A stretch of 64,000 nt of DNA, from assembly GCF_054482525.1 (NCBI RefSeq), contig NZ_CM137006.1. One strand, given 5' to 3'. This document shows, in pieces, positions 1,961-20,116 of this stretch. Each line of letters starts with the position of its first letter. Within the stretch, counting starts at the first letter, position 1. The position numbers were made by a program, and so were the translations under genes. Below the pieces are notes generated by a model that was not told where the DNA came from, ran no database searches, and saw nothing but the letters and a program-made list of their open reading frames with translations.

Positions 1961-2611
1961 TCAATGAGACATCATTTCCTCGACCACTTCTTCGCTACTC
2001 AACTGATATGGATAATACGTTGGCCAGTTTTCCATTTCATTTAATAAAGATTGCTGTGAATCATTACCCATAAAAATGTGAAAATGAGATGATTTTCGTG
2101 GTGCAATTATATGATCGCTAAATTGTATATATTTAGGGGCTTTGCTTTTAGGATCTTTACATTCGAATAAGTAACGAACGCCTTTCTTGCCTGATTTATA
2201 GGTGAGTATTTTGTATCCATCGTAATCATATTTACAGGATGTTGTTTCATTATTTCTATGGAATTCAACAATGCCGTCCTCAATGCCAATCATCTCGATA
2301 TCTGTCACATAACCTTTGCGATAATAATCTTTAATTTCAGCAAATGTTTTAGTTTTATCTGCATCCGCTTTCTTCTGAAAGACGGGGTCAAGTTTGCCAC
2401 TTTGCAGTAAAGGATAAACGGATTGCCAGACTCCATCCCAGTCACTGAGCGTTCGGTTTTGTACATTGGCATCATCAAAAACACCATTAGCAGCTTTTTG
2501 TTCGACCTCTGTTAAGGGTTTGCCGTGTGAGTGATGACCATGCGAAAAGGCAGGAGCGCTAACAATAAAGACACCTAAAGCAACAGCCAGTTTATGAAGA
2601 CGAATCGCCAA
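1961..2611 (-). CDS. zinT: Zinc/cadmium-binding periplasmic protein ZinT
   Basis: 216-aa ORF with signal peptide and His-rich HGHHSHG motif; matches ZinT (YodA). Confidence 0.93.
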
Positions 2612-2642
2612 AACAGTTTCCTCCAGAGTTAATGTATATGAT

Positions 2643-2666
2643 GTGTAATGTTATATTGTAACACAT
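2643..2666 (-). promoter_or_regulatory. Putative Zur box in the zinT promoter
   Basis: AT-rich near-palindrome TGTAATGTTATATTGTAACACA about 35 bp upstream of the zinT start; zinT is a known Zur target. Confidence 0.35.
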
Positions 2667-2819
2667 AAAAAAATGCAACAACTCTTAGGAGACAAGAGAA
2701 TAGTTCTCTCAGGTGTGCTTATCTATCTTATTGAAATAAAATAAATTATGTCGATGATTTGAGGTTGATGACAAACGAAACATAACCTAATGCGATCTGT
2801 GTATGCCGGATAAGGCGCT

Positions 2820-3574
<755 letters not shown>

Positions 3575-3678
3575 ATCAGCATACTTGTCCTTAGCCTTCT
3601 GCAGTGACAGCTGGTAGTACAGCGTGCTTCTGGCCAGCCCTGCAGCCTTTAACAGGTCAGACTGGCAGTGTCCGCACC

Positions 3679-4209
3679 TCAGGCTCCGGATGACTTTCGT
3701 TTTTTCTCCAGCTCCTGGCGCTTTTTTTCCAGGAGATGCTCCTGCATGGCTTTCAGATATGCATTTTCTGCGCGAAGATAACGCAGCTCATTCTTCATCT
3801 CTTCCGGCGTCATGTTTGCCTCGTTTTCATGGGTATCATCAGAACGGGTCATGCTTTTCTCCTTCCTGCGCCTGATAAAGGCCTCATTACCAGATTTGCG
3901 GTAGCCTTTTATCCAGTTTTTAACCGTGTTGTGGCTGGGAATGTTAAACCGGGCAGCTACCCGGGGTAGAGACTCAGAATGCCCGAGAGCATAAAGAACC
4001 ACGCAAAGTTTATCTTCAGGAGAATAGCTACGCTTGTGTCTGCAATCCAGTGCCCGAGGACCGTGAAGAAGAAAAAGATTAATCCAGTGTGAGAGGCTGG
4101 TGTGAGAAAGTTGAAAGAGTTTTGCCGTAGAAATGATGCCTGCATGACCAGCCAGGTAATGATTTACAGCGGCAAGTTTTACTTCAAATGAATGTTTCAT
4201 AAACTGCAC
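3679..4209 (-). CDS. IS3-family transposase OrfA (helix-turn-helix DNA-binding subunit)
   Basis: 176-aa ORF with a basic, leucine-zipper-like C-terminus; slippery heptamer A AAA AAG at plus 3721-3728 in the 0 frame. Confidence 0.85.
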   Translation of the reverse strand: MQFMKHSFEVKLAAVNHYLAGHAGIISTAKLFQLSHTSLSHWINLFLLHGPRALDCRHKRSYSPEDKLCVVLYALGHSESLPRVAARFNIPSHNTVKNWIKGYRKSGNEAFIRRRKEKSMTRSDDTHENEANMTPEEMKNELRYLRAENAYLKAMQEHLLEKKRQELEKKRKSSGA

Positions 4210-4302: not shown

Positions 4303-4938
4303 TTATAGAGATAATTTGTTGTGAACCTGCTTGCGTAACCGGTTGAAAAGGGAAAGCAACTTCTTATACCGTAAGGCTAAAAGCAGTACCGCCAGCCCAG
4401 CGTAGATGAGTGGCTGCGGTGAAATAATCTTCACTGACCACAGATAATGTATTGGGGCCAGGATCACGACAAGATAGACGAAGTTATGCAACTGTTGCCA
4501 GTGTTTGCCGAGTTTTCGCTGCATCGCCTGGGTTGAAGTGAACGCTAAAGCAAGCAAAATAACCCAGCTGATAATTCCTAACGTTAAATAAGGCCGGGTA
4601 ATTAACTCCTTGCCTAATAACGCCAGATTATTCACGCCCAGCTCCAGTAATGCGTAACTGGTTAAATGCAGTGTCGCCCAGGCAAAGCACCATAAGCCTA
4701 ACAGGCGGCGAGTGCGTATCAATAACGGCTGTTTTGCGTAGCGTGCCAGAGGTGTGATTAACAAGGCCGCCAGCAAAAATTTCAGTGCAGTGCGACCAGT
4801 AAAATGCTGAATATCTTTCACCGGATCGGCACCCAATCCACCGTGATTAATCGCCCAGACCAGCCAGAGAAACGGCAACAATCCGGCAAGATGCAGGCAA
4901 ACTTTCAGCCATGTCACCTGTTTTGCTGTCAGACGCAT
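4303..4938 (-). CDS. msrQ: Methionine sulfoxide reductase haem-binding membrane subunit MsrQ
   Basis: 211-aa polytopic membrane ORF matching MsrQ (YedZ); translationally coupled to msrP. Confidence 0.93.
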
Positions 4939-5949
<1,011 letters not shown>

Positions 5950-6051: not shown

Positions 6052-6465
6052 TTAACTGCCACGATAGGTTGAATACCCATATTGGCTAAGTAATAAAGGC
6101 ACATGATAATGCTCGTTCACTTTATTAATATGAAATTCAACGGGGATCTCAGGGAAGAGACTTTCAAGATTTTGTTTCTTGAAATAGTCCCCGGTTTTAA
6201 ATACGACACGGTAATCGCCCGTAGTTGCAGTTTGCTCGGGCCACAGTGCCTTAATTCGTCCATCCTTATCTGTTTTGGCGGTATTAAGTTGTAACCAGCC
6301 GTTATCCGCTTTCTTTTCAAGAGTGACTGTCACGTCGGCAGCGGGTTTTCCTGTTTGCTGGTTCAAAATATGCACGCTAAGAATGTTTTGTTGTGCAGCA
6401 TAGACCAAAGAAGGTAATGAAAATGCAGCCGTTACTACGGAGAGTACTAAATAACGCTTTAACAT
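6052..6465 (-). CDS. hiuH: 5-hydroxyisourate hydrolase (transthyretin-like periplasmic protein)
   Basis: 137-aa ORF with signal peptide and C-terminal YRGS signature. Confidence 0.92.
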
Positions 6466-6534
6466 GTTTATATCCTTGTCATGTGAATGAGTTTTGAGGA
6501 TAGCGAAAAAGCGTCCAGGGTAACCTTACAGAAG

Positions 6535-6552
6535 CATTACAATTTTGTAATG
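6535..6552. promoter_or_regulatory. HprR/CusR-type response-regulator box in the hiuH-hprR divergent intergenic region
   Basis: Palindrome CATTACAATTTTGTAATG between hiuH and hprR. Confidence 0.5.
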
Positions 6553-6597
6553 AACCAGGCTGTTTCTATAACATATGATTTATGGCATATTATTTTC

Positions 6598-7269
6598 ATG
6601 AAGATTCTACTTATTGAAGATAATCAAAGGACCCAGGAATGGGTAACGCAGGGGCTTTCAGAAGCGGGTTATGTCATTGATGCCGTTACTGATGGCAGAG
6701 ACGGGCTTTATCTTGCGCTGAAGGATGATTATGCATTGATCATTCTGGATATTATGCTTCCGGGTATGGATGGCTGGCAGATCTTACAAACGTTAAGAAC
6801 GGCAAAGCAAACTCCTGTTATTTGCCTTACTGCAAGAGATTCTGTCGATGACAGAGTCAGAGGGCTGGACAGTGGGGCAAATGATTATCTGGTAAAACCT
6901 TTTTCATTTTCTGAGTTGCTGGCAAGGGTTCGGGCACAATTAAGGCAACATTACGCTTTGAATTCAACATTAGAAATCAGCGGCTTAAGAATGGACTCTG
7001 TTAGTCAAAGTGTGAGCAGGGACAATATCAGTATTACACTGACGCGCAAGGAGTTTCAGTTACTTTGGCTACTGGCCTCCAGAGCTGGCGAAATTATACC
7101 CAGAACGGTTATTGCGAGTGAAATTTGGGGAATCAACTTTGATAGTGATACCAATACGGTGGATGTCGCCATTCGCAGGCTCCGCGCAAAAGTTGATGAT
7201 CCTTTTCCTGAAAAGCTAATCGCCACAATCCGGGGGATGGGCTATTCATTCGTAGCGGTAAAAAAATAA
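6598..7269 (+). CDS. hprR: OmpR-family response regulator HprR
   Basis: Receiver domain (MKILLIEDN...D...) plus winged-helix output domain; start taken at the internal ATG giving 223 aa (ORF track begins at 6487). Confidence 0.9.
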   Translation: MKILLIEDNQRTQEWVTQGLSEAGYVIDAVTDGRDGLYLALKDDYALIILDIMLPGMDGWQILQTLRTAKQTPVICLTARDSVDDRVRGLDSGANDYLVKPFSFSELLARVRAQLRQHYALNSTLEISGLRMDSVSQSVSRDNISITLTRKEFQLLWLLASRAGEIIPRTVIASEIWGINFDSDTNTVDVAIRRLRAKVDDPFPEKLIATIRGMGYSFVAVKK

Positions 7270-8627
7270 TGAAAAGATTATCTATAACCGTCCGTTTAAC
7301 CTTGCTTTTTATATTGCTGCTGTCTGTTGCTGGCGCTGGAATTGTATGGACTCTCTATAATGGCCTGGCAAGTGAGTTGAAATGGCGCGATGATACAACA
7401 CTCATTAACCGGACAGCGCAGATCAAGCAGTTGTTAATTGATGGGGTAAATCCAGATACGTTACCTGTGTACTTTAACCGGATGATGGATGTTAGTCAGG
7501 ATATCTTGATCATTCATGGTGATAGCATCAACAAAATTGTTAACCGGACGAATGTCAGTGATGACATGTTAAATAACATACCTGCTACTGAGACAATCAG
7601 CGCAGCTGGCATTTACAGAAGCATTATTAATGATACAGAGATAGATGCTTTACGAATTAATATTGATGAAGTTTCGCCATCATTAACGGTTACTGTGGCT
7701 AAATTGGCTTCAGCCAGACATAACATGCTTGAACAGTATAAAATTAATAGCATTATAATTTGCATTGTCGCCATTATACTTTGCTCAGTATTAAGTCCGT
7801 TGTTAATCAGAACGGGGTTACGAGAGATCAAAAAGTTGAGTGGTGTAACGGAAGCGCTGAATTATAACGATAACCGGGAGCCTGTTGAGGTTAGCGCATT
7901 ACCGAGAGAACTAAAACCTCTTGGGCAGGCGTTGAATAAAATGCACCAAGCCTTAGTCAAAGATTTTGAACGCCTAAGTCAATTTGCTGACGATCTCGCT
8001 CATGAACTTAGAACACCAATTAATGCATTACTGGGTCAGAATCAGGTTACGCTCAGTCAAACCAGAAGTATCGCTGAATATCAAAAAACAATTGCCGGAA
8101 ACATTGAAGAGCTGGAAAATATTTCGCGGTTAACAGAGAACATACTGTTTCTTGCCAGGGCAGATAAAAACAATGTTTTGGTGAAACTGGATTCGCTTTC
8201 TCTCAATAAGGAAGTCGAAAATTTGTTGGACTATCTTGAATACCTTTCAGACGAGAAAGAGATTTACTTTAAGGTCGAGTGCAATCAGCAAATTTTTGCG
8301 GATAAAATTTTACTGCAACGAATGTTATCGAATCTTATTGTTAACGCTATTCGATATTCACCAGAAAAATCGCGCATTCAGATAACCAGTTTTCTTGATA
8401 CCAACGGTTCTCTTAATATTGATATCGCCAGTCCTGGAACGAAAATTCATGAGCCTGAAAAACTCTTCCGTAGATTTTGGCGGGGAGATAATTCGCGTCA
8501 TTCCGTAGGTCAGGGACTTGGTCTTTCTTTAGTCAAAGCGATTGCCGAATTGCATGGGGGAAGTGCTACGTATCACTATCTCAATAAGCATAATGTGTTC
8601 CGGATTACGTTACCGCAAAGAAATTAA
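7269..8627 (+). CDS. hprS: Sensor histidine kinase HprS
   Basis: 452-aa ORF with two transmembrane segments, H-box (LAHELRTPIN) and ATPase motifs; start overlaps the hprR stop. Confidence 0.92.
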   Translation: MKRLSITVRLTLLFILLLSVAGAGIVWTLYNGLASELKWRDDTTLINRTAQIKQLLIDGVNPDTLPVYFNRMMDVSQDILIIHGDSINKIVNRTNVSDDMLNNIPATETISAAGIYRSIINDTEIDALRINIDEVSPSLTVTVAKLASARHNMLEQYKINSIIICIVAIILCSVLSPLLIRTGLREIKKLSGVTEALNYNDNREPVEVSALPRELKPLGQALNKMHQALVKDFERLSQFADDLAHELRTPINALLGQNQVTLSQTRSIAEYQKTIAGNIEELENISRLTENILFLARADKNNVLVKLDSLSLNKEVENLLDYLEYLSDEKEIYFKVECNQQIFADKILLQRMLSNLIVNAIRYSPEKSRIQITSFLDTNGSLNIDIASPGTKIHEPEKLFRRFWRGDNSRHSVGQGLGLSLVKAIAELHGGSATYHYLNKHNVFRITLPQRN

Positions 8628-10176: not shown

Positions 10177-11292
10177 TTAGAACTGGTAGACGATACCAAC
10201 TGCAAACTGGTCATCAGCTGCTGCGCCAGTAATGGCGGCGTCATCTTTATCCAGCATGTTGAATTTGTATGCAGTATAAACGTTCATGTTCTTATTGAAG
10301 TAGTACCAGGTACCAACTTCAATGTAGTTCACACGGTCAGCGTCAACATATCTATGTCCAGGTACACCTTTGATATCTTTACCTTTAGAATACACATAAC
10401 CTAAGGACGGACGCAGACCAAAGTCGAATTGATACTGAACAACCGCTTCAAAGTTCTGGGTTTCATTGATAAGTTGATCACGCATTATTGTATTGCCTTC
10501 TCGATCGGCAACACCTGTATCAATAGAACTCGGAGTCATATTACGAGTTTCACCGTACATTACAGCTGCGTAGACATTGTTCGCGTCATACTTTGCAGCC
10601 AATGACCACAGTTCAGCATTTGAACCGTTTCCATCGGCAACTTGATCGTTGGTGCGATCAGATTTGCTATATGCACCAACGATACCAAAACCATTGATGT
10701 TATAGTCTACAGACAACGCATAGCCGTCACCATTTTGTTTCTTAGTGCTACGGTTGCTGTTTTTGCCTTGGTACTGAATCGCAAAATCAAGACCATCAAC
10801 CAGACCAAAGAAATCAGAGTTACGGTAGGTTGCAACACCGTTGGTACGACCGTTCATGAAGTTGTCAGCGGACGCCCAGGAATCACCACCCCATTCAACT
10901 AACATATCGGTATAAGCTGCGGCATCATAAGCAACACCGTAGTTACGACCATAGTCGAAAGATCCTAACTCGTTATATTTCAAACCTGCGAAGGTTAAAC
11001 GGGTTTTTTCCTGATTAGAGCCTTCGGGCTTGCTGGCGTCGAGGTTGTATTCAAACTGACCAAAACCAGTCAGTTCGCTGGTGATTTGGGTTTCACCTTT
11101 AACACCGAAACGAGCATAGGAGGTATCTTCGTTTTCGCTGTTATTATCATCAGTATTTGACCAGATGCGTTCGCCAACCATCTTGCCGTAGAAATCAACT
11201 TTATTGCCATCTTTATTATAAATTTCAGCCGCATTTGCTGCGCCAGCAACTAATAACGCCGGGACCAGCATTGCCAGAACTTTTCTTTTCAT
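10177..11292 (-). CDS. yedS: Outer-membrane general porin of the OmpC/OmpF family (YedS), apparently intact
   Basis: Signal peptide [21 protein letters not shown], porin-like beta-barrel sequence, C-terminal ...VGIVYQF; start chosen at the ATG with an AAGGGA Shine-Dalgarno (ORF track begins at 11322). Confidence 0.85.
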
Positions 11293-11602
11293 TATGTATT
11301 CCCTTGTGATTATAATCTTCATGAATATATCAATAAGTGCTGTTATCCAAAAAAAAGCACATTTGGATACTATTCTATGAAGTTCATTTTATTTTAAAGA
11401 TTACATGTAACAAATGTATTTAAAAGATTTCAAAATGTTTCCAATCTATTTAATATAATTCAGAATTATGAATTCTAAATATAAGCATTCATGAAAATTA
11501 TAAATACATATCAATATGTTATGAGTTGAGCGGAAATATAGGGGGTATCAATGATTGTTGCGCCAAACGGCTGGTGTGATCACGCGCACATTAATGAAGA
11601 CA

Positions 11603-11700
11603 TAAAAAAAGCCGGCATCATGCCGGCCCAAAAAATATAAACAAGACGATAAAAGGCTAATAACGGAAGCATCATGACACAGAATAATAAAAAGGGATAA
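11603..11700 (-). ncRNA. rseX: Candidate small RNA upstream of yedS (position expected for RseX); 5' end not determined
   Basis: Minus-strand terminator (hairpin GCCGGCATGATGCCGGC plus T-run, plus 11604-11627) in the yedR-yedS intergenic region; RseX is known from this position in K-12. Confidence 0.3.
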
Positions 11701-17324: not shown

Positions 17325-19849
<2,525 letters not shown>

Positions 19850-20028: not shown

Positions 20029-20116
20029 AACACATCAGATTTCCTGGTGTAACGAATTTTTTAAGTGCTTCTTGCTTAAGCAAGTTTCATCCCGACCCCC
20101 TCAGGGTCGGGATTTT
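20029..20116 (+). ncRNA. dsrA: DsrA small regulatory RNA
   Basis: Sequence AACACATCAGATTTCCTGGTGTAACGAATTTTTTAAGTGCTTCTTGCTTAAGCAAGTTTCATCCCGACCCCCTCAGGGTCGGGATTT including its terminator hairpin and U-run. Confidence 0.9.

Follow-up and report, generated by a model that had tools for sequence, protein, structure and literature searches.

The closest described counterpart of the element considered here is the box that YedW/HprR and CusR share between hiuH and hprR in E. coli, which two papers print as CATTACAAAATTGTAATG (PMC9302797; bioRxiv 10.1101/2021.09.09.459708, citing Urano et al. 2015, 2017). In K-12, HprR binds the hiuH-hprR spacer in gSELEX with an affinity described as lower than that at cusC-cusR, and in O157:H7 its binding at the hiuH promoter is documented by ChIP-seq, ChIP-qPCR and EMSA. 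RT-PCR has shown that hiuH-msrP-msrQ constitute one tricistronic operon. HOCl raises the hiuH mRNA approximately 1500-fold and the yedWV (hprRS) mRNA approximately 20-fold, with induction of the operon being dependent on YedVW; the copper induction of msrP/hiuH-msrPQ, in turn, is dependent on CusSR. A ChIP study of CusR at 2 mM copper recovered a single peak at cus and none at hiuH-hprR; thus, CusR occupancy at the latter box may be weak or conditional. In the literature that we examined we found no experiment in which the box had been mutated.

Three further systems offer instructive comparisons. The cusC-cusR box is bound by the same two regulators and displays a comparable architecture: in the E. 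coli K-12 cusC promoter it reads ATGACAATTTTGTCAT-TTTT-CTGTCAC-N22-TAAAGT, i.e. an inverted repeat that can be parsed as 7-2-7 or 6-4-6, a four-nucleotide gap, a third half-site and a -10-like hexamer. It is the higher-affinity HprR target in gSELEX and the only CusR ChIP peak, and differs in having the arms ATGAC/GTCAT as against ATTAC/GTAAT at hiuH-hprR. The AgrR box of Cupriavidus metallidurans, with the consensus ATKACANNNNTGTMAT, is flanked by in-phase direct repeats, and activation suffers when either the inverted repeat or the direct repeat nearest the promoter is mutated; AgrR controls divergent operons, activates its own synthesis and adopts a class II-type positioning (PMC7380067). 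The core of the hiuH-hprR box fits the AgrR consensus perfectly, and the composite nature of the operator is likewise mirrored, with an in-phase promoter-proximal half-site in all 19 loci and also at cusC. The two systems differ in regulator and organism, in that AgrR acts unphosphorylated in the mutant studied, and in that the contribution of a third half-site has been demonstrated for AgrR, whereas for hiuH activation we infer it by analogy. Finally, the Pho box of PhoB is comprised of tandem direct repeats in an 11-bp register. The tandem TTGTAAT-N4-CTGTAAG at hiuH has the same 11-bp periodicity and its half-site resembles CTGTCAT; however, the Pho box lacks an inverted partner and replaces the -35 element closer to the -10, whereas the hiuH box additionally retains the symmetric pair.

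The window analyzed here, a stretch of 64,000 nucleotides, is from position 1230 to its end (1230-64000) 99.98% identical to the chromosome of E. coli PCN033, for which RefSeq gives the gene order zinT, IS1397, msrQ, msrP and hiuH, followed divergently by hprR and hprS, and then by hchA and a porin gene. On the plus strand, hprR (6598-7269) codes for a response regulator combining a receiver domain (Pfam Response_reg, PF00072) with a winged-helix output domain (Trans_reg_C, PF00486), which places it in the heavy-metal subfamily of the OmpR/PhoB family. The protein matches the HprR NCBIfam equivalog model with 480 bits (cut-off 353) across residues 1-223 of 223 and TIGR01387 with 378 bits, shows 52% identity to K-12 CusR, and differs from K-12 HprR by 3 substitutions with D51 being retained. 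The adjacent hprS (7269-8627, plus strand) encodes a full-length sensor histidine kinase with HAMP, HisKA and HATPase_c domains in Pfam, in which the H-box histidine H245 is retained along with M72, M73, M100, M153 and C165, the residues implicated in HprS sensing by the study that described the HOCl induction through YedVW. On the minus strand lie hiuH (6052-6465; NCBIfam equivalog, 294 bits), which encodes 5-hydroxyisourate hydrolase and is the first gene of the target operon, msrP (4939-5943), for the catalytic subunit of the periplasmic methionine sulfoxide reductase (annotation and Pfam Oxidored_molyb), and msrQ (4303-4938), for its haem-binding membrane subunit (annotation and Pfam Ferric_reduct). 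All five proteins are full length, carry the domains expected of them in Pfam, differ from their K-12 counterparts by 3 to 10 substitutions each and preserve the key catalytic and sensing residues. The cognate HprR/HprS pair beside the box is apparently functional. A 260-residue open reading frame starting from an ATG at 6487 was rejected as a mechanical N-terminal extension of hprR: the HprR model, covering residues 1-223, begins at 6598 and the orthologs share that methionine. The IS3-family element IS1397, with a programmed frameshift, occupies 2852-4209, where it separates zinT from the 3' end of msrQ; PCN033 carries this insertion, K-12 W3110 and strain 405 lack it, and the coding sequences of the operon are not interrupted by it.

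The start codons of the divergent genes (hiuH ATG at 6465-6463 on the minus strand, hprR from 6598) are separated by a spacer of 132 bp (6466-6597), and within it the 18-base inverted repeat CATTACAATTTTGTAATG occupies 6535-6552 on the plus strand, 87 to 70 bp upstream of the hiuH ATG (6552-6465 = 87; 6535-6465 = 70). It is organized as CATTACAA-TT-TTGTAATG, with two fully complementary arms of 8 nt each around a non-symmetric TT spacer of 2 nt, and includes the 16-bp core ATTACAATTTTGTAAT at 6536-6551. The sequence-only reading had reported a perfect palindrome at this position between divergent hiuH and hprRS genes. Its placement is borne out by the sequence and by the identities of the genes, and the word perfect holds for the arms but is slightly loose for the 18-mer as a whole, which is not self-complementary: on the hiuH strand it reads as its reverse complement, CATTACAAAATTGTAATG, and in this orientation it is 18/18 identical to the published box. 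In K-12 the YedW/HprR (CusR) box comprises the same 18 bases at the same 87 to 70 bp from the hiuH ATG and between the same genes, and the entire spacer is 131/132 identical to that of W3110, the K-12 strain used for this comparison; the sole difference, A6532 in the window as against C, falls outside all three half-sites discussed below. Hence, the element is an already published HprR/CusR operator, and the observation made from the letters is confirmed and its interpretation supported. The assignment to the HprR/CusR type is well supported for HprR, given the identity with the published box and the gSELEX, ChIP and EMSA results from K-12 and O157:H7, and weaker in vivo for CusR, whose ChIP peak was confined to cus and whose genes, cusRS, are situated beyond the window. 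The further suggestion that the box joins msrPQ, hiuH and hprRS into one oxidative and copper stress module agrees with the published HprRS-dependent induction of hiuH-msrPQ by HOCl and its CusRS-dependent induction by copper, and the binding assays with HprR that had been proposed, EMSA and ChIP, are in the literature as gSELEX in K-12 and as ChIP and EMSA in O157:H7.

Compared with the ATKACANNNNTGTMAT consensus, which typifies the copper box of heavy-metal response regulators, the site shows no mismatch, and a search of the 64 kb allowing up to 2 mismatches to the box pattern recovered this one match against 0.03 expected, with no second site under these relaxed settings. Perfect 8-2-8 inverted repeats of any sequence number two in the window as against 1.1 +/- 1.0 in shuffled versions, the other being CAGTCATAACTATGACTG at 19755-19772 within the coding region of yedP. 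As such repeats are not rare (2 observed against 1.1 expected), symmetry alone proves nothing; rather, the significance of the box comes from the combination of its identity with the published box, its position and its conservation.

To place the site in a wider context we examined its conservation within E. coli. Of 5426 complete genomes, 5412 contain the spacer with an identity of at least 90%, and the differences between the variants sampled lie solely outside the half-sites. Position 6532, which is situated between the box and the third half-site, 3 bp outside the former, is an A/C polymorphism: of 5417 E. coli records about 55 share the A allele of the window, whereas K-12 and most others have C. 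In E. coli SY033 an IS3-family element (2537-3918 of locus L084) is inserted directly after the box, at the equivalent of 6552/6553 of the window; it parts the box from the hprR promoter and leaves the hiuH side intact, thereby constituting a natural test of the requirement for the box in hprRS autoregulation.

A scan with HprR, using one genome per species, yielded 17 loci of other species whose HprR is 63-96% identical to the query; loci L020-L082 (44-58% HprR identity) represent other members of the heavy-metal response-regulator family rather than orthologs and were left out of the footprint. The box is present in all 17 ortholog loci, either at a fixed position or upstream of msrP, and is conserved above the background of the spacer. 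Twelve of these (from Escherichia albertii, Salmonella diarizonae, Pseudescherichia, Enterobacter, Pantoea, Kosakonia, Phytobacter and Shimwellia) share the layout of the spacer before the regulator pair, with a divergent hiuH detected in 11 and none detected in Pantoea conspicua. Each of the 12 displays an ATKAC-N6-GTMAT repeat (ATKACNNNNNNGTMAT) 45-50 nt before the hprR ATG, while the remaining spacer is poorly conserved. The adjacency of msrPQ to hiuH-hprRS was seen in Escherichia only and not in L004-L014; therefore, the linkage of the whole msrPQ-hiuH-hprRS module is lineage-specific. Consistent with this, in Salmonella CopRS is encoded beside hiuH but msrP is not under its control, being regulated by CpxR instead (PMC10083560). 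The five remaining loci (L015-L019), all from the Morganellaceae (Proteus, Providencia, Moellerella and Morganella), have the gene order hprR-hprS-msrP and lack hiuH. In these, no box was found upstream of hprR, and a perfect ATGACAANNTTGTCAT accompanied by TGTCAG occurs in the hprS-msrP spacer, at about 4535-4561 of each locus. With the Morganellaceae box placed upstream of msrP, the comparison shows the box to travel with the regulator and the operon that it controls, and so lends independent support to its role.

We then stacked 19 loci on the box without gaps, which revealed a common arrangement in 19/19: the 16-bp core, 4 nt, a YTGWMAG motif, 21-22 nt and a TATAAC-like -10 element. In the window the motif, a third half-site, is CTGTAAG on the minus strand (CTTACAG on the plus), at 6525-6531, and forms a direct repeat of the proximal arm TTGTAAT at a start-to-start distance of 11 bp. 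It is conserved to the same degree as the arms, with CCTnnCA being invariant in alignment A2 and GTCAG (TGTCAG) in alignment A3; hence, the operator is probably larger than the palindrome as judged from these alignments. At this distance, which is fixed at 21-22 nt in all 19 loci, the window has the predicted -10 hexamer of hiuH, TATCCT at 6497-6502 on the minus strand, the first two bases of which (TA) are invariant in A2. This would put the transcription start of hiuH near 6490, about 7 nt after the -10; with such a start the third half-site is predicted to span about -41 to -35 and the center of the 16-bp core to lie near -53.5. A symmetric third half-site is not conserved on the hprR side, where CAGGCTG (6556-6562) agrees at only 4 of 7 positions and does not keep the register in other genera. 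The E. coli literature that we examined prints the 18-mer only, with no third half-site, and the primary papers may cover a wider footprint.

The corresponding element on the other side of the spacer is the predicted extended -10 of hprR, TGgCATATT (TGGCATATT; 6583-6591 on the plus strand, with the hexamer CATATT at 6586-6591), which ends 6 nt before the ATG. The pattern TGnCAnAnT is near-invariant across the alignment (columns T..TG.CA.A.T) and in 11 of the 12 species compared its distance to the ATG is exactly 6 nt; a Shine-Dalgarno sequence before hprR is missing from this alignment. This configuration predicts a leaderless hprR mRNA starting at A6598, in agreement with a ribosome-profiling paper that has hprR among the known leaderless E. 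coli genes; the supplement of a paper on kasugamycin does not mention it. The center of the box would then lie at -54.5 from A6598, and the 16-bp core is almost midway between the two -10 hexamers (33 nt and 34 nt). A scan of 6300-6750 with the sigma-70 consensus called no promoter, and both promoters are hence called from conservation only.

Taken together, we place the probability that the divergent hiuH-msrPQ and hprRS promoters share the inverted repeat as their operator at about 0.93. The expectation of about one perfect 8-2-8 inverted repeat per 64 kb might be held in favor of a chance palindrome, or of a hairpin in RNA or DNA that acts in termination or processing and involves no regulatory protein; however, the element has the exact sequence of a box published as binding protein, is situated upstream of both transcription starts, and has both arms conserved in 17 other species with a symmetric drift between ATTAC/GTAAT and ATGAC/GTCAT, so that such an origin is all but excluded. 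The hairpin or terminator form of this explanation was dropped as effectively refuted, in light of its unremarkable folding energy (-7.7 kcal/mol, z = -1.08) and the lack of any Rfam match in the spacer, along with the conservation and position of the site. Somewhat less remote, but still very improbable, is that the right arm doubles as the -35 element of a basal, leadered hprR promoter repressed by occupancy of the box. Reading TTGTAA (6545-6550) as the -35 and TATAAC (6567-6572) as the -10 gives 4/6 and 5/6 matches with a 16-nt gap, but this TATAAC is restricted to Escherichia and is not found in the other 10 genera, in contrast to the conserved ATG-proximal extended -10; moreover, the promoter scan did not call it, hprR is reported to be leaderless, and the rise of the hprRS (yedWV) mRNA by approximately 20-fold on HOCl is contrary to the action of a repressor.

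A more serious question concerns the unit that activates hiuH. This might be the tandem TTGTAAT-N4-CTGTAAG, bound head-to-tail in a PhoB-like manner and centered near -43.5, with the distal arm serving mainly the hprR side or the cooperative loading of the regulator. In its favor, the third half-site equals the arms in conservation and lies 11 bp from the proximal one, in helical phase with it, and OmpR-family regulators usually bind direct repeats (discussed in PMC7380067). Nevertheless, a purely tandem site is unlikely, given that the Morganellaceae retain a fully conserved distal arm even though there is no divergent promoter there; likewise, mutation of the symmetric C/G of the AgrR inverted repeat almost abolished activation (PMC7380067). 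More plausible than the tandem, yet less likely than not, is an arrangement that retains both kinds of repeat: rather than the 18-bp palindrome, the functional HprR/CusR operator could be a conserved three-half-site unit, comprised of two inverted arms and, adjoining the -35 region, an in-phase repeat on the promoter-proximal side, with a fixed spacing of 21-22 nt to the -10. Such a unit would be common to hiuH, the Morganellaceae msrP and cusC, with possible further tuning by a switch in the arms.

Under the shared-operator reading, reactive chlorine or peroxide stress would lead HprS to activate HprR, and the phosphorylated HprR would bind the two arms as a symmetric dimer, while copper would act via CusS on the paralogous CusR, which would bind the same arms with a different affinity. 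On the hiuH side, the in-phase half-site CTGTAAG (about -41 to -35) would extend the occupied DNA to the -35 region, and a third protomer or an additional contact there could allow activation despite the poor -10 (TATCCT) and the lack of a recognizable -35. On the hprR side the same dimer, centered at -54.5 from the leaderless start, would bring about positive autoregulation. The box is seen as the cis-element that turns on both the MsrPQ-dependent repair of periplasmic methionine sulfoxide and HiuH under chlorine or peroxide stress and copper stress, and as mediating the autoinduction of the HprRS sensor system.

The arms drift symmetrically across the orthologs, being ATGAC/GTCAT in most genera, ATTAC/GTAAT in Escherichia and mixed in Salmonella and Pseudescherichia. 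We compared this with the recognition helix of HprR (residues about 183-198, encoded by 7144-7191 of the window), which is TNTVDVAIRRLRAK in each of the five species that carry ATTAC in one or both arms and TNIVDVAIRRLR(R/K)K in most of those whose arms are ATGAC; Shimwellia instead combines TNT with RRLRRK. This pattern may reflect co-variation of protein and DNA, but is confounded by phylogeny as the species concerned form one clade. The switch of both arms in Escherichia from ATGAC/GTCAT to ATTAC/GTAAT, along with the occurrence of alanine in place of arginine or lysine after the RRLR motif, may tune the sharing of the site between HprR and CusR or its partition from the cus site. The unchanged box in this PCN033-like strain indicates that the known circuit is intact, which helps annotation and is no discovery. 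The conserved three-half-site layout with fixed spacing and the lineage-specific arm switch are modest additions, and the primary literature may already cover both. The layout, with its third half-site, fixed -10 spacing, midpoint position and leaderless regulator gene, provides a concrete target for studies on HprR/CusR cross-regulation.

Several features in other parts of the window merit mention. Positions 1-1229 correspond to the tail-fiber end of a lambdoid prophage and are 100% identical to the zinT-adjacent prophage end in strains 405, XH992 and W46. PCN033 has mtfA and a tRNA-Asn gene at that place, and homology to it restarts at 1230, a point that falls within its tRNA-Ser gene. The junction at 1230 is probably an attachment-site remnant, because ARAGORN finds no intact tRNA there. 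An intact gene for an OmpC-like porin is situated at 10177-11322, at the place of the yedS pseudogene of K-12. It is adjoined by the gene for the small RNA rseX at 11604-11693 (Rfam, 97.7 bits), and DsrA is found at 20029-20115.
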